The notes: generated by a model from the letters alone, not told the origin. A stretch of DNA of 64,000 nucleotides from Gammaproteobacteria bacterium (GCA_018819205.1 JAHJQE010000036.1:1587-65586), one strand, 5' to 3'; shown: positions 1-64,000, counted from the stretch's first letter. Translations and numbers: made by a program.

Positions 1-536
1 TTTTCTGCCGCAGCAAACTCCAGTAATGGCTTGACTGGATAGGCGAACATATTGGCGATCAACACCGCCGGGAACTGTTCGATGCCGACATTGTAGATGT
101 TAACCGATTCGTTATACAGCTCGCGACGGTCGGCGATGGTGTTCTCCAGTCCGCTGATGCGCTTTTGCAGCTGCATGAAATGTTCGTTGCTCTTCAGCTC
201 CGGGTAGGCCTCAGCCACGGCGAAGATGTTGCCCAAGCCCATGCGCAGCATGCCTTCGGCCTTGCCCAGCGCGGCGATGTCCTGCCCCTCGCGTGCGCTT
301 TGCACCATGGAACGCGCTTCGATCACGCGTTGCAATGTCGTTTGCTCGAACTGTTTGTATTGTTTGCACACCTCGACCAGCTTGGGTAATTCATCGTGGC
401 GCTGCTTGAGCGCGACGTCGATGTTGGCCCAGGCTTTGCTGACCGCATGCTTGAGATTGACCAAGTGGTTGTACAGACTGATGCCGTAGATCAGTGCGAC
501 AAGGGTGATGCCGAGCAAGAGCAGGGTAGAGGTCAT
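1..536 (-). CDS. lemA: LemA family protein (3' end runs off window)
   Basis: Hand translation from ATG 536: MTSTLLLLGITLVALIYGISLYNHLVNLKHAVSKAWANIDVALKQRHDELPKLV...AVAEAYPELKSNEHFMQLQKRISGLENTIADRRELYN; LemA motifs; SD GGAG upstream. Confidence 0.9.
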   Translation of the reverse strand, partial: MTSTLLLLGITLVALIYGISLYNHLVNLKHAVSKAWANIDVALKQRHDELPKLVEVCKQYKQFEQTTLQRVIEARSMVQSAREGQDIAALGKAEGMLRMGLGNIFAVAEAYPELKSNEHFMQLQKRISGLENTIADRRELYNESVNIYNVGIEQFPAVLIANMFAYPVKPLLEFAAAE

Positions 537-50400: not shown

Positions 50401-51371
50401 AAGAGAACGCCATCGCGCTGCGTCGCATGTGGTCTGAGACCACCTACCAGATGCAGAAACTGCGCGACAACCCGACCTGCGCGCAACAGGAATACGACCG
50501 CATCCTCGACGCCAAAGACCCCGGCCTGCATGTGAAGCTGAGCTACGACGTGAACGAGAACATCCTCAGCACTCAGCACTCAACGCTCAGCACTGGCCTC
50601 ACCCGTCCCAAGATGGCCGTCCTGCGCGAGCAGGGTGTGAACGGCCATGTTGAGATGGCGGCTGCGTTCGACCGTGCCGGCTTCCAGTCTGTGGACGTAC
50701 ACATGAGTGACATCATCAGCGGCCGTGTGAAGCTGGAAGACTTCAAGGGTGTGGTCGCCTGTGGCGGCTTCTCCTACGGAGACGTGCTGGGTGCGGGAGA
50801 GGGCTGGGCCAAGTCCATCCTGTTCAACCCGCGTGCACGCGATGAGTTCGAAGCCTTTTTCAACCGCAACGACACCTTCGCATTGGGCGTGTGCAACGGC
50901 TGCCAGATGATGAGCAACCTGCACGAGATCATCCCCGGCGCGGACAACTGGGCGCACTTCGGCCGCAACCAGTCCGAGCAATTCGAAGCGCGCTTCGTGA
51001 TGGTGGAAGTGCAGCAGTCGCCTTCCATCCTGTTCGACGGCATGGCCGGTAGCCGCATGCCCATCGTCGTCGCGCACGGCGAAGGCTATGCCGACTTCGG
51101 CAACACCAAGCGTCTGCATGCCGCACAGGAAGTGGTCACCCTGCGTTACATCGACCACTACGGCAAACCGACCACGACTTACCCGCTCAACCCCAATGGC
51201 TCACCGCAAGGCATCACCGGTCTTACCACCGCAGACGGTCGCTTCAGCATCATGATGCCGCACCCCGAGCGCGTGTTCCGTGCCGTGCAGAACTCCTGGT
51301 ATCCGAAGGTGTGGCAAGAGAACGGCGCTTGGTTGCGTATGTTCCAGAATGCCAGGAAGTGGGTGGGATAA
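47472..51371 (+). CDS. purL: Phosphoribosylformylglycinamidine synthase (large type)
   Basis: [35 protein letters not shown]. Confidence 0.99.
50566..50593 (+). repeat. 4x heptamer tandem repeat TCAGCAC within purL
   Basis: TCAGCAC TCAGCAC TCAACGC TCAGCAC, read as STQHSTLST. Confidence 0.75.
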
Positions 51372-51393
51372 GTTAGGAGTTGTAGAGGGAATT

Positions 51394-51421
51394 AAAAAGG
51401 CGACCGGTAGGTCGCCTTTTT
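51394..51421. terminator. Bidirectional intrinsic terminator between purL and convergent gene
   Basis: AAAAAGGCGACC-GGTA-GGTCGCCTTTTT. Confidence 0.9.
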
Positions 51422-51438
51422 ATTGGAGCTAACAAAAT

Positions 51439-52221
51439 TTACAAACTCTCTACATTTGAACCGTTCTTTGTAGCTGTGGTACGCAAGGATTTTGATGCGG
51501 CTTTCGCAATTTTCTTTCGTGCTTCATCTGCTTTTTCGCCTTCAATTACTTCACGTTTTATGACTTCATTCAGGAGTACATCTTTTATTTGCTCAATATC
51601 GATGCGTACATCCGGAGAAATACGGTGCAATTCCCGGCGAATGATTTTTAGAACATCGTCTGTTTGAAGCATGGCTCCGACAAAAAATCGGGAGAGAGCT
51701 TGTTGCTGATTGTGATATTCGCCAAGAACAGAATGTTGCCAGCCTTCTTTACACCATAGGTAAAGCATTTCAAGATCGTGCTGGCTGCGAATATTCAAGG
51801 TGGTAAAGTCAATATTGACTACTAATTCACTAGAAATGGGTTTTGAAAAAGTCAGGTGATAAACGCGCCAGCAGATACCGTTTGTGAGCAATACCCAATC
51901 CACCCCTTGATTGGCTGCGTAATCGACCGCTTGTTTAACATGCTGGTCCTTTAAGTCCAATCCAATGGCTTTTACTTCAATAAGGGTTTGCAGACGACCA
52001 TTTACTTTGGTGGCTAAATCACAATAAGTACCCCTGATAGCATATTCGGAAGTTAGCTCAGAGTATTTGTCGTATCCAAAGATATCTTGGAACATATCCT
52101 TGATGATCGTGACAGTATCCGCTTCACCTACATCACGTGATTTCGCGGCTTCAAGAATTGGTTGGTATTTTTTGATGCCACTTACCAGTCGCTCAGCAAC
52201 TTTCTTTGGAATAGAAGCCAT
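51439..52221 (-). CDS. Stand-alone HsdR N-terminal-like PD-(D/E)xK nuclease
   Basis: EADT...CDL...LIEVK...QAVDY...LLTNG; visibly AT-richer than core genes. Confidence 0.8.
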   Translation of the reverse strand: MASIPKKVAERLVSGIKKYQPILEAAKSRDVGEADTVTIIKDMFQDIFGYDKYSELTSEYAIRGTYCDLATKVNGRLQTLIEVKAIGLDLKDQHVKQAVDYAANQGVDWVLLTNGICWRVYHLTFSKPISSELVVNIDFTTLNIRSQHDLEMLYLWCKEGWQHSVLGEYHNQQQALSRFFVGAMLQTDDVLKIIRRELHRISPDVRIDIEQIKDVLLNEVIKREVIEGEKADEARKKIAKAASKSLRTTATKNGSNVESL

Positions 52222-52284
52222 CGTTTTCCCCTTTTGCGAACAAGTTATGTGCTAACACTGTTCCCGTCAGTGCGGGAATCACGT

Positions 52285-52406
52285 CTTGCGCCAGCCTCCT
52301 GTTCCGGGGATTTCGCTGCGTGCCTCGCGCCGTTCGTGCGGGGCGATGTGCGTTGAGCGAATCTGCAAGTGCTCGAACTCTAGGACAGCGGTGCGGGCGG
52401 TGTCAA
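52285..52406 (-). ncRNA. Repeated promoter-leader module, copy 1
   Basis: TTGACA-N18-TAGAGT then structured core 52285-52369. Confidence 0.75.
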
Positions 52407-52445
52407 TCGATGTTTGCACCGCTAGGTTTCCTGTCCCGCTAACTG

Positions 52446-53054
52446 TCAGAAATTGTAGATGCCTATGTAGTGCGTGGTTTTCTGCTGTTCGTCCTTGATG
52501 GCGGTGATGGTGAGCCAGAAGGGGTGGAGGATGCGACCGTCCTTGTTCTTGATGCGTATCTCGCCGCACCATGAACCTCTTTCATGCAGTCGCTTCCACA
52601 TCTGTTCATAGAAGGGTTTGTCATGCATGCCGGATTTGAAGATACGCGGATTCTTTCCTACGATCTCGTCCATGGTGTAGCCTGATTTGGTCAGGAACTT
52701 CTCGTTGGCCCGGATGATGTTGGCATCGGCATCGGTGATGATGGTGGGGTCCTTGATCTCGAAAGCGACAGCGGCGATGCGCAGATCATCCTCTATCAGT
52801 CTGGATTCGGCGATGCGTCTGATCAAAGGCCTGAAGATCAGATAGTAGAAGAAGGGGAAGAGCAGCAGAGACAGCAAAGCGGAATCCAGCAAGGTGCTGT
52901 TCATTCTGCTCATGGGTGGGAGCAGACGCACCACTTCCATCACGAACGCTTCGCTGAAAAACACTGCCGCGATCAGGATGATCAGCAGTCTCTTTACCGA
53001 CTGATGGGTTTCTTTTTTTTGATGCTCTTGCGGAGCTGATAGATGATTGGACAT
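52446..53054 (-). CDS. 2-TM plus PAS sensor protein with no output domain
   Basis: IITDADANIIRAN, GKNPRIFKSG, WCGEIRIKNKDG; ends right at PAS C-terminus. Confidence 0.8.
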   Translation of the reverse strand: MSNHLSAPQEHQKKETHQSVKRLLIILIAAVFFSEAFVMEVVRLLPPMSRMNSTLLDSALLSLLLFPFFYYLIFRPLIRRIAESRLIEDDLRIAAVAFEIKDPTIITDADANIIRANEKFLTKSGYTMDEIVGKNPRIFKSGMHDKPFYEQMWKRLHERGSWCGEIRIKNKDGRILHPFWLTITAIKDEQQKTTHYIGIYNF

Positions 53055-53219
53055 GGTGGCCTCGCTGTTATTTGATCGTCATGCAGACAAACCGGCGACA
53101 TTCATGATTCTTCCGGGTGCGATGTGAGGCCGGTGTGTTTGCGTTCGGGTGTTTTCACATTGCTTAACAGTCCGTGCGTGCGCTGCGAAGTAAGTAGAGC
53201 GCATCAGCGACCTGATTGA

Positions 53220-53248
53220 ACTGTAGGCCTGGTGGTCACGACTGTCAA
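53220..53248 (-). promoter_or_regulatory. Putative sigma70 promoter of the PAS gene
   Basis: TTGACA-N17-TACAGT. Confidence 0.55.
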
Positions 53249-53332
53249 CGCTGCAAACAGGGTTGTGTGATCTGGGTTGATTGATACACTTCGCGCATGG
53301 CCCTGTGGGCATCCATACGAAGAGGCGTGCAC

Positions 53333-53989
53333 ATGAAAAAGGAATTCTGGCTGGAGCGGTGGGAGCGCGCGGAGATCGGCTTCCATCAGGAGGAAGTGAA
53401 TCCGTATTTGCTGAAGTATTGGGGCGAGTTACATGAGGCAAAGGGCGGCGAAGTGTTCGTTCCTTTGTGCGGCAAGAGCCTGGATATGCTGTGGCTGCGC
53501 CAGCAGGGGCATGATGTGCTGGGTGTGGAACTGAGTCCGATCGCGGTGCGCGATTTCTTTGCCGAGAGCAATCTGACGTTGACGCATACAAGCGAAGGCC
53601 ACTTCGATCGTTGTGAGGCGGATGGTATCCGTATCCTGTGCGGTGATTTCTTCGAACTGTCACGCGATCATCTGTCGCGGGTGAGTGCGGTGTTCGACCG
53701 TGCCTCGCTGGTGGCGCTGCCGCCGGAGATGCGCGAACGCTATGCGCGCCACCTGGCGGAGATATTGCCTTCCGGTACGCAGACCCTGCTGGTGACGTTC
53801 GATTATCCGCAGCAGGAGATGCCGGGGCCGCCATTCGCGGTGTCGGTGGAGGAGGTGCGGGCGCTCTACAGCGCGTATGCCGATATCCGTTTGCTGGCGC
53901 AGGAGGATATCCTGGATCGTGAACCGCGCTTCAAGGTGCGCGGTGTGACGAGGATGCAGGAGAACATCTTCTTGCTGACGATCAACTAG
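53333..53989 (+). CDS. tpm: Thiopurine S-methyltransferase
   Basis: FWLERW, VPLCGKSLDM, FDRASLVALP, GPPFAV. Confidence 0.93.
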   Translation: MKKEFWLERWERAEIGFHQEEVNPYLLKYWGELHEAKGGEVFVPLCGKSLDMLWLRQQGHDVLGVELSPIAVRDFFAESNLTLTHTSEGHFDRCEADGIRILCGDFFELSRDHLSRVSAVFDRASLVALPPEMRERYARHLAEILPSGTQTLLVTFDYPQQEMPGPPFAVSVEEVRALYSAYADIRLLAQEDILDREPRFKVRGVTRMQENIFLLTIN

Positions 53990-54072
53990 TTCCCATGTTG
54001 AGGTTGGCGTATCGACAGGTGATGGTTTACATGCCTTGCCCGTGGTCGATCAGCCTGATTTGGTGAGTGCGC

Positions 54073-55092
54073 TTAACGATAAGCCCCGCATCGGCTGTAT
54101 GCGGCATGAGTGGTCACGTTAGGTATGGTCAGTTGTTGATTGACGCAGCTCCAGTATCTTTTTTCTTTCTGGAGGCTCATCTCTTCTGCTCGCTTTTCCT
54201 GTTGCAATCTGCGTTCTTCAGCTTGTTCGCGTTGCAGTCTTAACCTTTCTTGCTCGGTCTCATAGCGCCTTTCCTGTTCATATCTTTGCTGATCAAGTGT
54301 GCGTGTTCGCAATTCGTATTCCTGCCGTTGGCGCTCCATTGCTATTTCAGCTGCTGATTGCTTAATGTCGATATCTGCATAGGTTTCAACTCTATCTGTT
54401 TCGGTGGTGGCGTTGGCAAAATCGCGCTGGATATCTACGACTTCCTTCTGAATCGAATGTGAGTTCTTTGCCTTGAAAAAGTCGAGACCGAGGTATCCCA
54501 GCAGGACGAGAGAAAGTACTCCTATGACCACTGAACCTTTATGACCGGACAACCAAGTGGTGGCTTTTGGCAGGTCTTCATAATCGACCAGGTTATTCCT
54601 TCGCGTCATTTCATTGTTGACGCTTTCGAGGAGCTTGCGGTCATACTGTTCGCGCAAGCTCGGATCGCCCAATACCCTTTTTGCATAATTGAATTCCGAG
54701 ATGGAAGTTGCGGAAGCGATCTGATTATCCACTTCACGTTCAGCGATGGTTGAGGCGACCGTGGCATCCGATGCATCTGCGCCCAGTCCCAGCGTGATAT
54801 AGAGACTGGATTTCTTGGTTATGGCCAATTTCCGTTTGAGCTCGGCGCGCAATCTGTCTAATTCTGTGTTGCCTTGTGTGAAACTTGGCTGAATTGGATT
54901 GGAGTTGGTTGCCGGGACCGTATTCAGTGAGGGGGTTCGAAGCAGATCACGGTATCTGAGGCGGATATAGGCAGCTTTGGTTTTATCGATATCAGCGTCT
55001 GAAATTGCCAATGCTTGAGTCCAGATAGCCGGGTCGGTTTTATTCGACGCAAGTTCATCTGAAATGATTTGGTAATAGACCTTGTCTGACAT
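54073..55092 (-). CDS. Hypothetical membrane protein with degenerate J-like segment and coiled coil
   Basis: LYITLGLGADAS...VLGDPSLREQYD, one TM, E/R/Q-rich tail; AT-richer; start could be 55161. Confidence 0.7.
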   Translation of the reverse strand: MSDKVYYQIISDELASNKTDPAIWTQALAISDADIDKTKAAYIRLRYRDLLRTPSLNTVPATNSNPIQPSFTQGNTELDRLRAELKRKLAITKKSSLYITLGLGADASDATVASTIAEREVDNQIASATSISEFNYAKRVLGDPSLREQYDRKLLESVNNEMTRRNNLVDYEDLPKATTWLSGHKGSVVIGVLSLVLLGYLGLDFFKAKNSHSIQKEVVDIQRDFANATTETDRVETYADIDIKQSAAEIAMERQRQEYELRTRTLDQQRYEQERRYETEQERLRLQREQAEERRLQQEKRAEEMSLQKEKRYWSCVNQQLTIPNVTTHAAYSRCGAYR

Positions 55093-55367
55093 TTGTAATG
55101 TTCCAGGTTGGTAGCTGTCTGTCTTTCTTGGATGCAATTGTTTTTTTAGCTTGCATTCCAATGAATCCGAACTGTCAGGAAAATTAACATAAATCTCCGC
55201 AGTAAGTTTGTGGAAATATATCTATATATAGGGGCCTGCAGATATAGATATTGCATGGCAGAAAAAGAGTGCGGGATGGGCGTGAGACTGCATCTGGCAA
55301 GTCGCCGATGCAGATGCTCAGCACAATTTCATGGATGAATAGGCTGGATGCGATTCAAAATACATGG

Positions 55368-55943
55368 CTAAACGACAGTGAGCCCGAGCGAGCACCAGTC
55401 CTGCATGCCGCCGCGGTACCACTTCAATTTCACGGCGGGGTAGCCGAGTGCGAGCAGGGTGCGGATGTAGTTGGGCGTCTGGCCGCACCATGGGCCGTTG
55501 CAGAAGATGGCGAGGTTGCGGGCGTGGCTGAAGTCGAAACCTGCATTGATTTCTTCCACACCGAACAGCTCCAGCAATGTCTTTTTCACACCTGGCAGGT
55601 CGGTCGGTTGTCCGGCCATGTTCTGTACAAAGGGCACGTTCATCGAGCCGGGGATGGTGACTTTCTCATACCAGTCCGCTGTGCGTGAATCGATCACCAT
55701 GCATTGCGTGTCGCCCGCGTGGATGCGCTGCAGATAGTCCAGCATTTCCAGTTCGCCGAATGTCTCGACGCCCTCAGCCAGTCGCATCGGCTGGATGCAG
55801 TAGGGCGGGCAGGCGCGCGCGGTGGGCGCATACTCGGCACGGATGGTGGCGGAAGGGTCTTGTTCGCGCTGGATGGCGACGGGCTGGCCGTGGTGCAGCA
55901 CCGTAACCGTGGGCAGGCCCACGGTGATTTGGTATTCGGTCAT
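55368..55943 (-). CDS. Rhodanese-like sulfurtransferase (SoxL-like)
   Basis: CPPYCIQP, IDSRT, TIPGS, FCNGPWCGQT, WYRGGMQDW. Confidence 0.85.
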   Translation of the reverse strand: MTEYQITVGLPTVTVLHHGQPVAIQREQDPSATIRAEYAPTARACPPYCIQPMRLAEGVETFGELEMLDYLQRIHAGDTQCMVIDSRTADWYEKVTIPGSMNVPFVQNMAGQPTDLPGVKKTLLELFGVEEINAGFDFSHARNLAIFCNGPWCGQTPNYIRTLLALGYPAVKLKWYRGGMQDWCSLGLTVV

Positions 55944-56007
55944 GCATTGTTTCCGATGATGGTGTTAAACGGGATTGAGGGCCGTCAGGCCCGGCCTTCA
56001 TTGTTGG

Positions 56008-56166
56008 CTACCCACCGGCAGCTGCCTTTTCCTTGGCACATTCCGGGCAGCCTTCACTCGGCAGGAAGACCAGACCGTGCTTGGGGCAGCGTTGCAGGAT
56101 GACGGTCTTGCCGTCGTGCTCGCCTTCTTCGTTGATGATGATGGAGTCGTCGTCGGGGTGGGTCAT
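56008..56166 (-). CDS. 52-aa putative zinc-binding microprotein (below ORF-track cutoff)
   Basis: Hand translation MTHPDDDSIIINEEGEHDGKTVILQRCPKHGLVFLPSEGCPECAKEKAAAGG; GAGGAGG SD. Confidence 0.7.
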   Translation of the reverse strand: MTHPDDDSIIINEEGEHDGKTVILQRCPKHGLVFLPSEGCPECAKEKAAAGG

Positions 56167-56220
56167 GGTTTCCTCCTCTTTTAATGGAATGCGCCGTAAC
56201 GATCGCTACTTGGCTTTCAT

Positions 56221-56484
56221 TTAATCAGGGCCAAACAGTTCATCCAGCGGGTTCTTGCCAGTGGGTGCATAGGCAGATACTTTTTTCACTGTGAACTCTT
56301 CTTCGATGTTGTCGCGGAAGAAACTCCATGCCGCACCCGAACTGCTGAGCCTGCGCCAGAGGTCTTCTCCGACACCAAGATATTGCAATGTGTCGCCATT
56401 GTCGAGTTGAACTTGCAGCGTGCGCGCCCGTGCATCGTAGCCGATGGCGCGCAACTTGCCGGAGTTGATCTTCTTCATTTCCAT
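56221..56484 (-). CDS. KTSC domain protein
   Basis: SGKLRAIGYD...LQVQL...QY...WSFFRDNI. Confidence 0.85.
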   Translation of the reverse strand: MEMKKINSGKLRAIGYDARARTLQVQLDNGDTLQYLGVGEDLWRRLSSSGAAWSFFRDNIEEEFTVKKVSAYAPTGKNPLDELFGPD

Positions 56485-56504
56485 GCGCCTGCTCCTTCAG
56501 TGGT

Positions 56505-57398
56505 TCACTGCAGGATAAACGAAGTCTTCAACGGCAGGTTGATGTGTCCGACGTTGTCCTTGAGGGTGATGCTGACTTGCCACACACCGTACGGATCGTT
56601 CTGTTCACCGATGAATTTGATGATCGGCGCTGAGAGGTAGAGATAGTTCGGCTGGCCTTTGAGTGTACCTTTGAAACAAGTGGCATCAGTCTGCTGGAAT
56701 GAGGCAATACCGTCCGGTTTGCGCAGGTCGATATCGCATGTGATATCGGCAACCCCACGATCGTCGAGTTTGGGGTTGCTGAAGAAGGTGAGGGCGTAGA
56801 CGGGCTTACCTTTTGAGATGGTTTCGGCCATGCTGAAGTGCGGGATGGAGGCAGGCTCTGTTTTCCATTTCCTTTCCCAGTCGGTATCAGCGGTGACGAG
56901 CAGCCAACCGCCAAATCCATTCTGAACTTTTCTGGAATCGGAATCTGGTTCTAAGCGTCCCTGAGCGTCTTTCCACCCTGAGTCGAGTCTTTTGAGCTGG
57001 ATCTGGACGGGTTGCGACATCATCATCAGCGCGACCAGGGTGTATTCCTTTTCGCCGGGACGGAAGATGGAATCTTGCCGACAGAACGCGAACGCGTGGT
57101 TATGGACGCAGGAAGGATGGGTATCGTTCAGTTCGTTCTCGCTAAAGAAGCGTGCCAAGTCGTGCGCTTTGGACTCTTTCAGCAGGCAGTTGCGCGCACA
57201 GGTGGCGCTGGCCCAAGTGCCGTCCGGTTGGCGTTGCTCGACATTCCACTGGCCCTCGTTATGCGAGACGAAGAAGGTGAAGTCGGTGATGTGTCCGTCA
57301 CGATGCATTACGGCGTAGTTGCCGCTGTCTGTTTGATCGAGCGCGGATGCGTTAAGCATGAAGCTGAAGAGCGCGAAAAATGCTATGCGGTGAATCAT
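56505..57398 (-). CDS. Secreted hypothetical protein (start re-set to MIHRIAFF)
   Basis: AAAGGGG SD, signal-peptide-like N-terminus; the ORF-track upstream extension crosses the leader module. Confidence 0.7.
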   Translation of the reverse strand: MIHRIAFFALFSFMLNASALDQTDSGNYAVMHRDGHITDFTFFVSHNEGQWNVEQRQPDGTWASATCARNCLLKESKAHDLARFFSENELNDTHPSCVHNHAFAFCRQDSIFRPGEKEYTLVALMMMSQPVQIQLKRLDSGWKDAQGRLEPDSDSRKVQNGFGGWLLVTADTDWERKWKTEPASIPHFSMAETISKGKPVYALTFFSNPKLDDRGVADITCDIDLRKPDGIASFQQTDATCFKGTLKGQPNYLYLSAPIIKFIGEQNDPYGVWQVSITLKDNVGHINLPLKTSFILQ

Positions 57399-57459
57399 GA
57401 AGTCCCCTTTATTGCGAACTGGATCAATCTGGCTGCTCCCGTCATGGCGGGAATCATGT

Positions 57460-57580
57460 CTTGCGCCAGCCTCCTGTTCCGGGGATCTCGTCTTTGGCCC
57501 CACACCGTGCATGCGGTGCGATGTGCCTTGTACGAACTGCAAGTTGTGTATGAATGTAGGGGGAAGTAGGGGAGCTGTCA
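57460..57580 (-). ncRNA. Repeated promoter-leader module, copy 2
   Basis: TTGACA-N16-TACATT then structured core 57460-57543. Confidence 0.75.
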
Positions 57581-57606
57581 ATGGATGAGGAAGTACCATT
57601 TCCGTG

Positions 57607-59973
57607 CTAGGTGGGGGCGTATACGAATATCCGGTCACGCCCGGCCTCTTTCGCCCGGTACATGGCGCTATCGCCCCGGCTGAGGATGTCGTACTGATTG
57701 TCTGACTTGCCATCGAATAGCGTGACACCGATGCTGCTGGTGCATTCGTGGGTGACGGCGATCTTCTCGTCTCCCTTGACACGGGTCAGGTTATAGGGCT
57801 CAGCCAAGGCTGCGGCGATCTTCTCTGCGACGACGTAAGCCTGTTGCCGCATCTCTTCCTTGCTGCTGGATAGATCACCCAGTACGACTACGAATTCGTC
57901 ACCACCATAGCGGGCGACCGTGTCGATCTCACGCACGGTAGAGGTGAGGCGCTGGGAGACTTCAATAAGCAACTGGTCGCCGACTTCGTGCCCGCATTGG
58001 TCATTGATGGGTTTGAAGTTATCCAGATCGAGGAACAGCAAGGCGCCGTAGGCATCGTTGCGTTTGCTGTTGGCGAGTGACTTCGAGAGTCTGTCGCTCA
58101 GCATGCGCCGGTTGGGAAGGTGGGTGAGCGGATCGAAGAATGCCAGGGAATAGATCTCCTGCTCGGTCTCCTTGCGTTTGCTGATGTCGCGGCAGAAGGC
58201 GATGTTGTATTCGAGTTCGCCGAACTGCACATGGTTGGCGGAGACTTCGACCGGGATGATGCTGCCATCCTTGCGCCTGTGCCGGGTCTCGAACAGCTGC
58301 GTCTTGTCTTGTTTGAGTTCTTCCCAGTGGGCCTTCCAATGATCGACCGGGAAGTCCGGATCCAGATCCGGGATGGAGAGTTTCATCAATTCTTCCCGGT
58401 TGTAGCCCAGTGTCGAGCAACCCTGGTTGTTGACGTAGCGGATGTTGCCATCCTTATCCAGCCAGTAGATGGCATCGAACGCCTTGTCCATGGCGAACTT
58501 GGAGAGTTGGAGTTGAACTTCCGACTCTTTTTGGTCGTTGATGTCGACACAGCTGCCGATGTAGCCGAGGAACAGGCCTTTGCTATCGTAACGAGGAACG
58601 CCGTGGTCGACGATCCAGCGGTATTCACCTGTGTGATGACGCAGGCGATATTCCAGTGTGAATGGCCGTCGCGCATCGAAGGCCAGGATATATGCGTGCA
58701 GACAATCTTCCCGGTCATCCTGATGAATGCCTTGAGTCCATCCATCTCCCAACTCCTGCTCCATCTTGCGACCTGTGAAGTCCAGCCAGACCTGATTGAA
58801 ATAGATGGATTTCTTGTCGGTCCCGGCGATCCAGATCATCACGGATTCGTTCTTGGCCAGTACACGCAGGTTCTCTTCGCTCTTGCGTAATTCTGAAACG
58901 GCAGTTTCGGCTTTGTTCAGAGCTGCGCGCGACTGCGTAAGTGCTGTGATCAGGAAATAAAGCAGGATGCTGGTAATAGTGCCACCGAAGAAGATCATCC
59001 GGGCCTTGCTGTAGTCCAGTCCTTCTTTGTGGGGGGCAAGATGTTCCGATACCAGCGTCCATTCGTGTCCGCCGAATTCGAGCCGTTGCTGGATGATGAA
59101 AGGCTTGGCCGTCTGGTCTTTCTTTTTGAGGTTGGAGTAGAGCAGTGCATCCCGGCCGAGATGTGTTCCATCATAGATGCTGATCTGAAGAGGCGTGATT
59201 TTGCCTTCCGGTTTAGCTGCGCTAAGGGCATTCTCGACCATGTCTTTCATGCGGAAGGGGCTGTATACCCAGCCTTCCAGTGCGGCACGACGCTGTGCTA
59301 CGGTTTCGTGCGGCATACCTTTTCGATAATGCGGGAGATACATCAGAGTGCCTGCCTGCACATCCTCCGTGGTCTCTTGTACCAGCTTAACTTTTCCGGA
59401 AAGCGCTATGGCGTTCGTGTCGCGCGCGCGCTCCATTGCAGTGCGACGGGTGGGTTCGGAGTACATGTTGTAGCCGAATGCGCGCAAATTGCGTCCGCTG
59501 AACGGCTCCAGGTAGAGGATGGAGGTATAAGCGTCCAGATCCTGTTTCGGCCACACTTCGTATTCGGGGAATCCTTCGCGGCGTACCGATGCGATGTGGG
59601 AAGCGAGCTGATCGCGATGTATCCACTGGGCGTAGCCCAAGCCCTGCACACTCTTGAAATGATCGTTCAACTCTATGCGACTGGCGTAGCGTTGCCATTC
59701 ATCGCGCGTCACTTTGGATGAGGAATCGAGGAAGGCGGCGGCACCGATCAGTACTTGTTCATGCGAGCTCAGGGTGGCCAACAGATGCATGCGCACCTCA
59801 TCGGCATCTGCGGCAAAGTGTTCGATCGCGATCTTGTCCGCATCGACCTTGGCTTCGTAGCTTAAATACAAGGTGATAGCCAAGCCTGCAAGCATGGCTA
59901 CAAAGGCATACTTGCAGAATTGGCTCACATCTGCCAAGTGCATGGCGGATTTATCAAGCTGCTTTGCAAGCAC
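57607..59973 (-). CDS. CHASE-PAS-PAS-GGDEF diguanylate cyclase (probable GTG start)
   Basis: CHASE GLGYAQW/YLEPFSGRNLRAFGY, two PAS, intact GGDEF with RxxD I-site (REID). Confidence 0.93.
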   Translation of the reverse strand: MLAKQLDKSAMHLADVSQFCKYAFVAMLAGLAITLYLSYEAKVDADKIAIEHFAADADEVRMHLLATLSSHEQVLIGAAAFLDSSSKVTRDEWQRYASRIELNDHFKSVQGLGYAQWIHRDQLASHIASVRREGFPEYEVWPKQDLDAYTSILYLEPFSGRNLRAFGYNMYSEPTRRTAMERARDTNAIALSGKVKLVQETTEDVQAGTLMYLPHYRKGMPHETVAQRRAALEGWVYSPFRMKDMVENALSAAKPEGKITPLQISIYDGTHLGRDALLYSNLKKKDQTAKPFIIQQRLEFGGHEWTLVSEHLAPHKEGLDYSKARMIFFGGTITSILLYFLITALTQSRAALNKAETAVSELRKSEENLRVLAKNESVMIWIAGTDKKSIYFNQVWLDFTGRKMEQELGDGWTQGIHQDDREDCLHAYILAFDARRPFTLEYRLRHHTGEYRWIVDHGVPRYDSKGLFLGYIGSCVDINDQKESEVQLQLSKFAMDKAFDAIYWLDKDGNIRYVNNQGCSTLGYNREELMKLSIPDLDPDFPVDHWKAHWEELKQDKTQLFETRHRRKDGSIIPVEVSANHVQFGELEYNIAFCRDISKRKETEQEIYSLAFFDPLTHLPNRRMLSDRLSKSLANSKRNDAYGALLFLDLDNFKPINDQCGHEVGDQLLIEVSQRLTSTVREIDTVARYGGDEFVVVLGDLSSSKEEMRQQAYVVAEKIAAALAEPYNLTRVKGDEKIAVTHECTSSIGVTLFDGKSDNQYDILSRGDSAMYRAKEAGRDRIFVYAPT

Positions 59974-60028
59974 TCGTTTCCCCCTGGTGTGGACAAGTAA
60001 CGGCTGCAACCCTATTCAGGAATACTTC

Positions 60029-60150
60029 CTTGCGCCAGCCTCCTGTCCGGGAATCTCGTTGTCCTTACTGCACCGTACTTGCGGTGGAGTTTGAGGGCCT
60101 CGAATCTGCAAGTCGTACTAAACTCTATGGGGTGTATGAAGATGTGTCAA
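60029..60150 (-). ncRNA. Repeated promoter-leader module, copy 3
   Basis: TTGACA-N17-TAGAGT then structured core 60029-60112. Confidence 0.75.
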
Positions 60151-60193
60151 TGATACGACTGCATTTATAAACCATTCAGTAAAAGAGGTTTGC

Positions 60194-60727
60194 ATGAAGC
60201 TGATATTGGTCCGTCACGGCGAGAGCGAAGGTAATGTGAAGCATGTGATCAATGACGATCCCATGCGTGCCGTCGCGCTGACGGAGAGAGGCAGGGCTCA
60301 AGCTGTGGCCGCTGCAGAACGATTGCAGGGAATACGGTTCACTCATGCCTATGTTTCCGAGTTCACGCGTGCCCGGCAGACGGCAGCCATCCTGTTGCGG
60401 CAACATGGGCTCGTACCTGTGGTCGATGCACGATTGAACGAGCGGATATCAGGCATGGATGGTCTGCATGTCGATGTGTTCAACGACCTCGTGCGAGAAG
60501 ACTATCTGCATACCAAGCCACCCGGAGGCGAGTCCTTTCTGGAGCAGATGGCACGGATACGCAGTTTCCTTGATGAGATATCGCATCGCCATCCTGATGG
60601 CATCGTGCTGGTGGTCTCGCACGAGAATCCCATCGTTGCCGCGCTGACGCTGAAGAGTACAACACCGGAATCAGCGTGCCTGCAAAAGCTGGATAACTGC
60701 GAATCGGTGGTGCTGGACTGGCCTTAG
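60194..60727 (+). CDS. Histidine phosphatase superfamily protein
   Basis: VRHGES, RARQTA, GGESF, LVVSH. Confidence 0.92.
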   Translation: MKLILVRHGESEGNVKHVINDDPMRAVALTERGRAQAVAAAERLQGIRFTHAYVSEFTRARQTAAILLRQHGLVPVVDARLNERISGMDGLHVDVFNDLVREDYLHTKPPGGESFLEQMARIRSFLDEISHRHPDGIVLVVSHENPIVAALTLKSTTPESACLQKLDNCESVVLDWP

Positions 60728-61023
60728 GTCGGCGGTTCGATCTTGCGCAGCAGGGCGATACGGCGTGTTTCGGCGATCTTTAGCCAGAGCACGACTGATG
60801 CCAGCAGCAGTGTGATGCTGTTCGCCGCGATCACCGGCAGGCTGCCGATGGCGATTCCGTAGCCCAGCCAGAGGGCAACTCCCAATGTGAATAGGGTATA
60901 CATCGGCAGTGAGATGCCGGCGAGGTTGCGGGTGCGCCAGGATTGCCAAGCCTGCGGCACGAAAGCGATAGTGGTGAGGAAGGCGGCGGGGTAGCCAAAC
61001 AGGTTGCTGAGTTCGGTCGTCAT
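60724..61023 (-). CDS. SemiSWEET / PQ-loop transporter
   Basis: LTTIAFVPQAW, GISLPMY, LWLGYG, VIAAN. Confidence 0.9.
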   Translation of the reverse strand: MTTELSNLFGYPAAFLTTIAFVPQAWQSWRTRNLAGISLPMYTLFTLGVALWLGYGIAIGSLPVIAANSITLLLASVVLWLKIAETRRIALLRKIEPPT

Positions 61024-61103
61024 GGCGGGCTGCTTCGTATTCCTTTCCGCCGGCAGGCGGGTGGGCGCATTCTACCCAACACCATACTCTTGCGCAGCAT
61101 GCT

Positions 61104-61232
61104 TCAATGCCCGTCGTAGAGACTCTCGAAATCGCGGAAGAAGTGTTCCAGAACTTTGGCGCGCTTGACCTTCAGCGTCGGGGTGAGCAGGCCGTTGTCC
61201 ATGCTCTAGGCTTCGCCCAGCAGTGCCAAGCG
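61104..61232 (-). pseudogene. C-terminal remnant of a long-chain acyl-CoA synthetase with in-frame TAG
   Basis: RLALLGEA*SMDNGLLTPTLKVKRAKVLEHFFRDFESLYDGH*; TAG at the usual Trp position. Confidence 0.75.
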
Positions 61233-61292
61233 GCAGGCAGGGCGCGTTCCTGAAAGGTGGCGGTTCAGTGTTGGCCGTACTTGGCAAAACTA

Positions 61293-62099
61293 TCAGGTCT
61301 TGTCTACGTAATTGACGGGCGCGTGGTCGCCAAACGGCTTGGGGGGGCGCATCCATCCTAACAGCCAGTCCATCCAGCCGCGCGAAGCGGGCGCTTCAAG
61401 TGTCTGCAACTTTCCGATATGTCGGAAGCCAAGTGCCTCGGGGGGTACAGTCGCGACGATGTCCTCACCGTACACGACGCGGTGGATGCTTTCGGCCATG
61501 CCATCGAGTGACGCGACGAATTCTTCATCGCCCACACGCGGGGAGCCGAAGGTGTAGAGCGCGGTCGGTGCGATGCGTGCGGCGGCCAGCGTAGCCAATG
61601 CAGCGCCCAAACTGTGGCCGGTGAAGAATAACGGACATTGCAGCCGCTTTAGTGCGCGTTCGATGTCAACCCACACGCTGTCGAGTGCCTGGGTGAACCC
61701 GGTATGGGTATCAATCTTGCCGTCGTTGTTGCGCAGGTATCCTACTGTGAGATCGGTGACGAGATCCTTGATGTGCAGTTCGGTGCCGCGAAAGACGAGC
61801 ACGGCGAATGGCGCAACAGTCCCGAATTCCAGCAACATGGCCTGCGTATCAGTCTTGCGCGAGAAGAAGAACTGTCTGCGGGTACAGCCGGCCTTTTTCA
61901 GAAACAGGGTCTGGGTAGGTTGTGTTGGTGAGTCAGTCTCCTCCGCGTCGTGGCGATAGATCAGACGGCTGAGTTCGGCAAGCCAGTGGGCGTTGCCGCT
62001 TTTGTAGCTGCGTGTGCTGGGATCGAACGGAGGTAGAGGCCGACGCGAGAAGAAATCCCTGGCGTCGCCGGGATGTAACAGTTCGTTCCAGGTTGCCAT
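61293..62099 (-). CDS. Lipase class 3 family protein
   Basis: VLVFRGT, HTGF, GHSLG, YTFGSPRVG, DIVATVP, DH. Confidence 0.92.
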   Translation of the reverse strand: MATWNELLHPGDARDFFSRRPLPPFDPSTRSYKSGNAHWLAELSRLIYRHDAEETDSPTQPTQTLFLKKAGCTRRQFFFSRKTDTQAMLLEFGTVAPFAVLVFRGTELHIKDLVTDLTVGYLRNNDGKIDTHTGFTQALDSVWVDIERALKRLQCPLFFTGHSLGAALATLAAARIAPTALYTFGSPRVGDEEFVASLDGMAESIHRVVYGEDIVATVPPEALGFRHIGKLQTLEAPASRGWMDWLLGWMRPPKPFGDHAPVNYVDKT

Positions 62100-62120
62100 A
62101 TCTTCCTTTCAATATGTGTA

Positions 62121-63143
62121 TCAGACGACCGCCAGATCGTAGCCCATGTTCTTGAATATGCTCGAGAGCTGTTTGATGCCGAAGCGTTCCTGTTCTTTCA
62201 CCGCCTGTTGGAAGCGGTACCAGTGGGTGCTTTCGCGTGTGCTGCTGTCACGCCAGTGATATCGATCCTTGAACAGGGTGAAGCCGTGCAGCAATCCGTC
62301 CGGGTTGTCTTTCATGCCGCGCACTTCTGTTTCGATGGCTGCGTCGAACCACACTGTCTCGTCGAACTCCGGGAACCAGTCCAGACGTTTCCTGTAGCTG
62401 CTGAGGCGCGCATCCTGATAACGCAGTTCGTCGCCGGTATAGGTCTGCCCACCGATGGTGATGAGATCGCTTTCCAGCAACGGCCACTGAGCGGAATGAT
62501 CCGGATTCCCCTCGCTGACTTGGTAACTGCAGTAGCGTTTGAACAAGGCCTCGGCGGCATCGATGAAACGGTTGCGGTTGCTGATCTCGTCATCGACCAG
62601 ACGGTTGTCTATCCATTCATGGCAGACCCAGTCGGGATGGTGGCCGCCGGGCGCGTGGCCGATGGCGGGGACGGGTTTGAGCTCGATCTGGTTGTAGTGG
62701 TCGTACCAGCCGACGAAGTTCTGGTGCGCCCAGGTATCCACGAAGCTGTGGGAGGCGATGCCGATGCGATACAGGCGGGTATCGGTATGCGCCTTTAACG
62801 CATCGTCCAGCATGGCGTTCGCATGTTCGTTGTTCGGCGTGGTGTTGAGCAGATGCATTTTGCCGTCGCGTCGGCGGGCGGTATAGGCCATCGGGTCGCC
62901 AGGGATGAAGTGGAAGATGGGATAGATGCGCATCAGGCTGTCCTTGGGCTTGAGGATGTTCATCGTTTGGCTCATGAAATTGATGTAGGGCCGCAATTTT
63001 CCGGAGCGATCCAGAATCTCGTGGCTGATGTCGTTCTCGTCGACGTATTCGGACGCGTAGGCGATGGTGAGTGAATCTTCCTTGCTGAAGCCGGCACGAT
63101 GTGCGACCAGCCCGGTGAGCCAATAGTGGAATTCGATGTCCAT
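62121..63143 (-). CDS. DUF6765-like protein, possible Zn-dependent phospholipase C/P1 nuclease fold
   Basis: MDIEFHYW...ASEYVD...FHFIPG...GIASHSFVDTWAHQNF...IGHA; family name from memory. Confidence 0.65.
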   Translation of the reverse strand: MDIEFHYWLTGLVAHRAGFSKEDSLTIAYASEYVDENDISHEILDRSGKLRPYINFMSQTMNILKPKDSLMRIYPIFHFIPGDPMAYTARRRDGKMHLLNTTPNNEHANAMLDDALKAHTDTRLYRIGIASHSFVDTWAHQNFVGWYDHYNQIELKPVPAIGHAPGGHHPDWVCHEWIDNRLVDDEISNRNRFIDAAEALFKRYCSYQVSEGNPDHSAQWPLLESDLITIGGQTYTGDELRYQDARLSSYRKRLDWFPEFDETVWFDAAIETEVRGMKDNPDGLLHGFTLFKDRYHWRDSSTRESTHWYRFQQAVKEQERFGIKQLSSIFKNMGYDLAVV

Positions 63144-63203
63144 GCGTTTCCCCTTTTGTGACAGTTCGGTCTGACGGAATCTCCTCTGATTCGGAAATGT
63201 CGT

Positions 63204-63323
63204 CTTGCGCCAGCCTCCTGTCCGGGGATCCCGTTGCCAGTCTTGCACCGTACCTGCGGTGCAATGTTCTTGGGCGGGATTGCAAGCTGTGCTGAATGTA
63301 GGGGAGGTGGTCTTCGAAGTCAA
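63204..63323 (-). ncRNA. Repeated promoter-leader module, copy 4
   Basis: TTGACT-N17-TACATT then structured core 63204-63286. Confidence 0.75.
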
Positions 63324-63413
63324 TCAGGAGCGATGCGTATCGGCATAAATGTCGATCTTGGCATCGGTATAATGTGTCGCTGTTTCCTGGTTCAACTCTT
63401 ATCTGGAGTCATC

Positions 63414-64000
63414 GTGTTCAAGCTTATCGCTATCGTAGTCGGCTATATATTTTTCGGATGGATGGGGGCTTTCTTCGGCCTGATCCTGGGCGCGGTCATC
63501 GATCGTATCCGCGCATTCGGCCAGGGAGCGCTGAATCCCCTGCATGCCGCATTACGGCAGACGGTGTTTCTGGAGACGGTGTTCATTGCCATGGGCAGGT
63601 TGGCCAAGGCAGACGGGCGCGTGTCGGAAGCGGAGATCGCGCATACCGAGGCGTTGATGCAGAAACTGGGCATGACGCCTGAGCATCGCCAGCAGGCCAT
63701 CGCGCTTTTCAAGAAGGGCGCTGCGGGTGATGGTGACATGTATGCGGCGTGCAAGAAGTTCATGTCGGTATGCGGCCATACCCATCACTTGAAAGAGATG
63801 CTGCTGGTCTATCTGATTGTGATGGCGATGGCGGACGGGGAATACCATCCGGAAGAAGAGAAGCTGCTGATGGAGATCGCCGGGCATCTTGGCTATGGGC
63901 CGGAAGCTTTCAGGCGACTGCTGGATATGGTGGTGAACCAGACGCATTTCGCAGGCGGTCAGGCGAACAGTGAGACTGCGCTGGAGGATGCCTACAAGGC
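63414..64000 (+). CDS. djlA: Co-chaperone DjlA (partial, GTG start)
   Basis: Hand translation VFKLIAIVVGYIFFGWMGAFFG...AMGRLAKADGRVSEAEI...AMADGEYHPEE...ALEDAYK; TerB-like domain leading into J domain. Confidence 0.88.
   Translation, partial: MFKLIAIVVGYIFFGWMGAFFGLILGAVIDRIRAFGQGALNPLHAALRQTVFLETVFIAMGRLAKADGRVSEAEIAHTEALMQKLGMTPEHRQQAIALFKKGAAGDGDMYAACKKFMSVCGHTHHLKEMLLVYLIVMAMADGEYHPEEEKLLMEIAGHLGYGPEAFRRLLDMVVNQTHFAGGQANSETALEDAYK

Follow-up and report, generated by a model that had tools for sequence, protein, structure and literature searches.

In a 64,000-nucleotide (nt) stretch of DNA from a Gammaproteobacteria bacterium (GCA_018819205.1 JAHJQE010000036.1:1587-65586; hereafter, the window), a direct-repeat search combined with alignment revealed four copies of one messenger RNA (mRNA) leader unit, all on the minus strand. 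In each copy, a sigma-70-type promoter is followed by a conserved three-helix core of ~85 nt, a small hairpin, the Shine-Dalgarno sequence (SD) GGGGA, and finally the start codon. The interval of interest, positions 52285-63286, extends from the last base of the copy 1 core to the first base of the copy 4 core. A preliminary description of the window had singled out two short segments within this core as possible guide slots, or else as a length-conserved spacer. We show computationally that these segments face each other as opposite strands in the central part of a long helix, P2, where a bulged helix is combined with a 4x4 internal loop. It is likely, in our assessment, that the leader built around these strands is a cis-acting translational switch resembling a riboswitch. 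It is, apparently, a conserved and previously undescribed mRNA leader of the iron-oxidising Gallionellaceae.

A covariance model built from the four window copies recovered two further copies in the source genome (2.15 Mb), bringing its number to six, and identified the leader in 31 of 36 other Sideroxydans genomes, with 1-9 copies each. We fitted 132 Sideroxydans copies to the model (alignment A3; n=122 for most column counts), and a second covariance model built from this alignment gave matches to the motif in 76 of the 151 Gallionellaceae genomes searched (12 of 18 genera); the 147 genomes sampled from other families of the order gave none. Overall, the sampled Gallionellaceae genomes contained at least 239 matches, and the copies were often clustered within genomes. 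Together with 37 copies from other genera, which were aligned separately, the analysis covered 169 aligned copies from 12 genera. Columns are numbered over the 117 well-occupied alignment columns, in which the left segment occupies columns 21-32 and the right segment columns 53-62.

The fixed length of the two segments, on which the preliminary description had relied, was borne out: by model columns, they measure 12 and 10 nt in all four window copies. The right segment has the 10 nt first reported, and the left is uniformly 12 nt, the earlier range of 11-12 nt being a matter of where the boundary was drawn. Among 122 Sideroxydans homologues, the left segment is 12 nt long in 111 and the right is 10 nt long in 121; the same right length was found in 36 of the 37 copies from other genera. 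The segments had also been called variable, which holds among the four window paralogues (pairwise identity of 0.46 on the left and 0.37 on the right, compared with 0.98 in the 3' domain) but not across the family, where about half of their positions are among the best conserved. Mean pairwise identity in the family is 0.68 for the left and 0.66 for the right segment, the same as for the covarying stem P2a. The conserved positions are G27 (115 of 122 copies), C28 (109), A29 (119), C30 (112), A31 (113), and U32 (107) on the left, and A53 (96), G54 (115), G55 (111), and C56 (114) on the right. Taken over the 132 Sideroxydans and 37 other-genus copies, G27-U32 and A53-C56 are about 80-100% conserved, and G27, A29, G54, and C56 are conserved in 37 of 37 copies from other genera. 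Only columns 23, 24, 26, and 57 are essentially free, and the aligned rows show that orthologous leaders of other genomes retain their segment sequences.

Pairing between the left and right segments, around the 4x4 internal loop, involves columns 21-62, 22-61, 27-56, 28-55, 30-54, and 32-53. The 27-56 pair is canonical in 121 of 122 copies with six double changes, and the count observed was matched by none of 300 shuffles; 30-54 is canonical in 119 of 122 (five double changes), 32-53 in 116 of 122 (10 double changes), and 21-62 in 113 of 121 (11 double changes). The 22-61 pair alternates between C-G and U-A, covarying above all shuffles, and the canonical counts of several of these pairs exceeded every shuffle. 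Within the window, copy 3 has U27-A56 and A30-U54, which are compensatory relative to the G-C and C-G of the family. Where only 2-3 base pairs of cross-pairing had been noted, each window copy in fact has five to six pairs in register with the covarying pairs of the family; read from the aligned rows, they are interrupted by two single-A bulges and the internal loop. RNAfold returned the P2 pairings in copies 1 and 2, and in copy 4 when the full-length leader was folded. The sequence differences among the paralogues lie mostly at loop positions or are compensatory changes, and the segment length is fixed because both P2 strands must stay in register. Of the earlier suggestion of a length-conserved spacer, the length-conserved structural element stands, and the spacer gives way to the strands of a helix. 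The bulged-A helix inside the segments is a candidate part of a binding or tertiary core.

P2 is one of four paired elements, P1 to P4, that make up the consensus structure (Table 1). The consensus pairs were recovered by mutual information and are backed by pair counts against shuffled controls. Over the whole structure, 90.5% of cells are paired compared with 83.9% after shuffling, and the number of double-change cells is 243 compared with 72.6, which none of 500 shuffles reached; slid controls were at most 49% paired. In the internal loop (columns 23-26 / 57-60), pairing was no better than in partner-shuffled controls. For P3, RNAalifold proposed an alternative, CCCC/GG.GG, with equal complementarity and no informative variation; we chose CCAG/CUGG because 73-85 varies among A-U, G-U, and G-C, and because CCGU/GCGG variants fit it. 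The leader is therefore a covariation-supported structured domain within a 5' untranslated region (UTR), as is required of a riboswitch.

These data also bear on the proposal that the segments are programmable guides which would act together, like the paired loops of an IS110 bridge RNA, to define the DNA or RNA target of a protein encoded elsewhere. Their fixed lengths, the strong divergence of the four window paralogues, and their position within a constant scaffold could all be read in this way, and a constant folded scaffold with internal loops of fixed size is indeed what the leader and IS110 bridge RNAs have in common. However, the loop strands of bridge RNAs vary freely and match target and donor DNA, whereas those of the leader are largely conserved, pair with each other with compensatory changes, and are kept among orthologues; the invariance of G27, A29, G54, and C56 in other genera is a poor fit to a programmable sequence. 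We searched the source genome with the segments of all six of its copies on both strands, allowing at most one mismatch and requiring joint sites within 60 nt. The only joint left and right sites in the 2.15-Mb genome were the leaders themselves, and the counts of single-segment matches fell within the range of 20 shuffles. This search covered the source genome, segments of 10-12 nt being too short for BLAST against collections of phages or plasmids. IS110 bridge RNAs lie at the non-coding end of an IS110 element beside its DEDD recombinase, and this recombinase (PF01548) had no match in the source genome, which is 100% complete, while control genomes did match. Mobile DNA gave no support either, with no exact match to the leader core in viral contigs and no blastn match to the whole leader in plasmids. 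Moreover, judging by sequence, the leader is not a stand-alone non-coding RNA as a bridge RNA is, but an mRNA leader located between a promoter 37-38 nt upstream and the SD and start codon of ordinary genes 45-70 nt downstream. With segments that covary as a stem and, in the source genome, no matches outside the leaders above shuffled controls, the guide proposal is refuted; we assign it a negligible probability, and it can be dropped for this locus.

The promoter belongs to the conserved unit: TTGAC is found 37-38 nt before P1 in 105 of 122 copies, and upstream in 115 of 122. The promoters of the four window copies (TTGACA or TTGACT, a spacer of 17-18 nt, and TAnAnT) all score in a promoter scan. 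From the placement of the -10 box, we infer that transcription starts 1-2 nt before P1, and the transcript probably begins directly with the aptamer-like core. The linker 3' of P4 is conserved (GCAUC-GCCAGC-AGCAC-A-CUUGUUC-AnCAAA-GGGGA), and three pieces of the linker and SD are complementary to the 3' half of the aptamer-like core, in the correct order and polarity (Table 1). In copies 1, 2, and 4, the minimum-energy fold obtained with RNAfold is a long alternative hairpin that carries P4 at the tip and buries the SD; in it, UCCCC pairs with the SD and GAACAGG with CUUGUUC. The SD is predicted to be paired in the minimum-energy fold of 105 of 107 leaders, with aptamer columns 67-73 as its predicted partner in 91, and a state in which P1 and P3 are forced costs +9.3 kcal/mol on average over the 107 leaders. 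The complementarity of the alternative fold is kept in 67-99% of copies per position, and in at least 73% at 16 of 19 positions. It is also maintained by compensatory changes, at aptamer position 76 with linker position 46, 87 with 31, 85 with 33, and 77 with 45; examples of compensated variants are GCCGACG/CGUCGG, GGCGGCG/GCCGCC, GGACAGG/CUUGUCC, and UCAGG/CCUGA. In silico, the leader thus has the mutually exclusive, SD-occluding pairing that is expected of a riboswitch.

Two mutually exclusive conserved folds, one of which hides the SD, amount to the design of a translational riboswitch. In the switch that we propose, P1, P2, and P3 would form an aptamer-like three-way junction; alternatively, the 3' half of the aptamer would pair with GCCAGC...CUUGUUC...GGGGA, burying the ribosome-binding site. 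A candidate ligand would stabilise the aptamer fold and free the SD, so that translation would be turned on, which is the most likely logic; a protein would be a less likely stabiliser than a ligand.

A leader that senses no specific signal could share part of this organisation. It would be either an RNA thermometer or a constitutive structured 5' UTR that determines mRNA stability or the basal level of translation, and would have spread by duplication of a promoter-leader cassette. This would accord with the conservation of promoter, leader, and SD as one unit, with the frequent clustering of copies, and with an SD-sequestering fold that is the minimum-energy structure, as in thermometers. 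Nevertheless, a thermometer or stabiliser needs only the helix opposing the SD, not a covarying P2 with invariant bulged adenines and a hexaloop, and two mutually exclusive conserved folds, each of them covarying, are a hallmark of switches. We therefore regard this explanation as improbable.

In another reading, the two states would be controlled without a small molecule: the P2 core or the P3 loop would be recognised by a small RNA acting in trans or by an RNA-binding protein. A heterogeneous regulon is also seen with global post-transcriptional regulators, restriction to one family would be expected of a lineage-specific protein partner, and the GGA-containing hairpin loop (ACAGGAGG) together with the GGGGA SD resembles Csr-type targets. 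Yet the CsrA family (PF02599) was not matched in the complete source genome, and no conserved neighbouring gene emerged among 64 downstream-gene clusters. In our judgement, some 45 almost invariant positions, distributed across the junctions, bulges, and loops of a three-way junction, are also more typical of ligand pockets than of protein sites, and we consider control by a protein or small RNA unlikely.

Several observations weigh against the riboswitch-like switch or limit it. When the aptamer is forced, the SD is still at least three-quarters paired in 65 of 107 predicted folds, probably with the 5' arm of P4 as its partner in these models, which leaves the ON/OFF direction uncertain. P1 is almost invariant, with one compensatory change (CCUGC/GCAGG) and four wobble changes, and P3 varies at 73-85 only (A-U, G-U, G-C), so that few changes support the pairing of either helix. 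Folded by itself, the aptamer has no unusual stability (z of -0.5 to -1.7), and support for the structure therefore comes from covariation, not from energy. Fitting the alignments to the model favours the model's own structure, and the copies share descent, so that the shuffle tests overstate significance. Finally, the heterogeneous regulon names no ligand.

The leader was also compared with known RNA families. In Rfam 15, no family matched the leaders at the gathering threshold over the whole window, at E<=10 over positions 51000-64000, or at E<=0.1 over 16 related loci; a full-text literature search combining Sideroxydans or Gallionella with riboswitch and motif terms returned nothing relevant. 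The cyclic diguanylate riboswitch c-di-GMP-I (GEMM-I, RF01051 / RF03167) is similar in occurring in several copies per genome before heterogeneous genes that include GGDEF and sensor genes. However, its covariance models did not match the leader in the window at E<=10, nor in the 16 loci at E<=0.1, and its architecture differs from that of the leader, a long bulged hairpin and a short P3 closed by P1. GEMM-I riboswitches are present separately in 34 of 41 Sideroxydans genomes. In two related genomes, c-di-GMP-I or c-di-GMP-I-GGC riboswitches lie inside syntenic leader clusters (L097:5278-5380 and L111:7370-7472, both on the minus strand), and in a third a c-di-GMP-I-type riboswitch lies divergently, 180 nt from a leader (G022:C22:39622-39724); the window's own leader cluster has none. 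Further parallels are orphan riboswitch candidates from comparative surveys (for example PMC8632094, PMC11109978, PMC7266159), which likewise have a conserved covarying 5'-UTR domain and an SD-occluding alternative fold, established by comparative analysis only. By comparison with these, the leader is not found in Rfam 15 and its range is limited to the Gallionellaceae.

The genes that follow the four window leaders are mutually unrelated (Table 1), and the orthologues of the 297-amino-acid (aa) gene behind copy 2 are preceded by the same leader type in other genomes. Across the family, 19 of 114 downstream open reading frames (ORFs) carry PAS domains, seven of these with CHASE and three with MASE1, counts that are not independent since regulon members are often orthologues. 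Where these PAS genes are full length, their output is GGDEF or a histidine kinase; for comparison, the source genome has 31 GGDEF matches in total. One downstream gene without PAS is a chemoreceptor. The others include eight UbiE-like methyltransferases, five DUF6765 proteins, DUF2167, a DUF900 hydrolase, a papain-like protease, a GH108 lysozyme, ORF6N, and many genes without a family. The genes that the leader precedes are diverse and enriched for PAS sensors, as could be expected if the signal were a global one, for instance a signalling nucleotide, although the pattern does not identify it.

Table 1. Leader features in the window (nucleotide positions) and in the consensus (alignment columns).
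Feature	Position	Strand	Remarks
Copy 1 promoter	52377..52406	-	TTGACA-18-TAGAGT; promoter scoring
Copy 1 aptamer-like core	52285..52369	-	P1 CUUGC/GCAAG, P2, P3; alignment, pair counts
Copy 1 left segment	52346..52357	-	CTCAACGCACAT; 5' strand of mid-P2, columns 21-32
Copy 1 right segment	52316..52325	-	AGGCACGCAG; 3' strand of mid-P2, columns 53-62
Copy 1 expression platform	52222..52284	-	P4 52262-52277, SD 52228-52232, linker complementary to aptamer 3' half
Copy 1 downstream gene	51439..52221	-	ATG 52221; 260 aa, HSDR_N_2-like
Copy 2 promoter	57553..57581	-	TTGACA-17-TACATT; promoter scoring
Copy 2 aptamer-like core	57460..57543	-	
Copy 2 left segment	57521..57532	-	TACAAGGCACAT
Copy 2 right segment	57491..57500	-	GGGCCAAAGA
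Copy 2 expression platform	57399..57459	-	P4 57437-57452, SD 57404-57408
Copy 2 downstream gene	56505..57398	-	ATG 57398; 297 aa, no Pfam family, hydrophobic N-terminus
Copy 3 promoter	60122..60150	-	TTGACA-17-TAGAGT; promoter scoring
Copy 3 aptamer-like core	60029..60112	-	
Copy 3 left segment	60089..60100	-	AGGCCCTCAAAC
Copy 3 right segment	60059..60068	-	GTAAGGACAA
Copy 3 expression platform	59974..60028	-	P4 60006-60021, SD 59981-59985
Copy 3 downstream gene	57607..59973	-	GTG 59973; 788 aa, CHASE-PAS-PAS-GGDEF diguanylate cyclase
Copy 4 promoter	63295..63323	-	TTGACT-17-TACATT; promoter scoring
Copy 4 aptamer-like core	63204..63286	-	
Copy 4 left segment	63264..63275	-	GCCCAAGAACAT
Copy 4 right segment	63234..63243	-	AGACTGGCAA
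Copy 4 expression platform	63144..63203	-	P4 63181-63196, SD 63150-63154
Copy 4 downstream genes	61293..63143	-	ATG 63143; DUF6765 (340 aa) and class-3 lipase (268 aa)
P1	columns 9-13 / 89-93		CUUGC/GCAAG
P2a	columns 17-22 / 61-66		covarying
Internal loop 4x4	columns 23-26 / 57-60		A25, C58, A59, C60 semi-conserved, rest free
P2b	G27-C56, C28-G55, C30-G54		A29 and A31 bulged; nearly invariant irregular helix
P2c	columns 32-39 / 46-53		includes U32-A53; loop CAYGYA
P3	columns 71-74 / 84-87		CCAG/CUGG; loop AACAGGAGG
P4	columns 101-105 / 112-116		hairpin after P1
GCUGGCG	columns 83-89		P3 3' strand and first base of P1 3' strand; partner GCCAGC
GAACAGG	columns 74-80		P3 loop; partner CUUGUUC
UCCCC	columns 68-72		junction J2/3 and P3 5' strand; partner GGGGA (SD)

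Besides the four intact copies, positions 53100-53248 of the window (minus strand) contain one more family-type promoter, TTGACA-17-TACAGT, and behind it ACTTACTTCGCAGCGCACGCACGG, a leader-like stretch that has decayed. This stretch lies within the 3' end of an ORF (53079-53834) and upstream of a PAS ORF (52446-53054), and it was not detected by the leader covariance models. An upstream ORF was also considered for the expression platform: in copy 2 alone (57399-57459, minus strand), AGGAGG and an ATG after P1 open a frame of 20 codons, the TGA of which overlaps the main start codon (ATGA). We dropped this idea, since an ATG or GTG linked to AGGAGG is missing from most homologues in the aligned rows.

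Several variants of the leader were observed in other genomes. At L125:158-330 (G033:C4 around 6487), GCGACC-UUCC-GGUCGC and a run of U stand in place of the SD platform. They resemble a terminator and overlap the anti-aptamer strand GCCAGC; on its sequence, this copy would switch transcription instead of translation. A second conserved stretch, directly after the SD and UUG, is present in about half of the Sideroxydans copies, none of them in the window (for example L076:155-400, L105, L121, L066, L102, and L126). It reads CUCAC(C/A)GA(A/G)CAU(U/C)CUUC(A/G)CUCAGGCC, followed by a covarying hairpin and then AUUAUUC. Its nucleotides are conserved and its reading frame is not, the real gene starting 150-250 nt later; it has no Rfam family match and may act as an attenuator or as a further RNA domain with a regulatory role. 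Five copies share a GC-rich insertion of 50-60 nt within the P3 loop (...GGUGGCGGCAnAGCCGCC...GCGUACCCCUUGCGGGUG; L106:159-323, L122:1770-1944, L110:6077-6235, L079:1699-1876, and L071:150-325). It looks like a repetitive extragenic palindromic (REP)-like or miniature inverted-repeat transposable element (MITE)-like repeat, and pieces of this element were found near leaders elsewhere.

We tentatively propose that the leader could be a new riboswitch class confined to the Gallionellaceae, in which a three-way-junction pocket that includes the invariant bulged-A helix would respond to a candidate global signal; this might be a nucleotide used in signalling, or a metabolite linked to redox state or iron in these microaerophilic iron oxidisers. 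Present in 1-11 copies per genome, the leader would turn on dozens of genes for sensors, cyclases, and hydrolases at the level of translation. The window copies, at ~160 nt from transcript start to start codon, provide compact test constructs. The Gallionellaceae are iron oxidisers that are difficult to cultivate, and next to nothing is known of their regulatory biology, which makes the leader of interest. Should it bind a ligand, that ligand would reveal a signal by which these bacteria coordinate sensing with functions of the envelope or of hydrolases, and the known aptamer folds would gain a new one.

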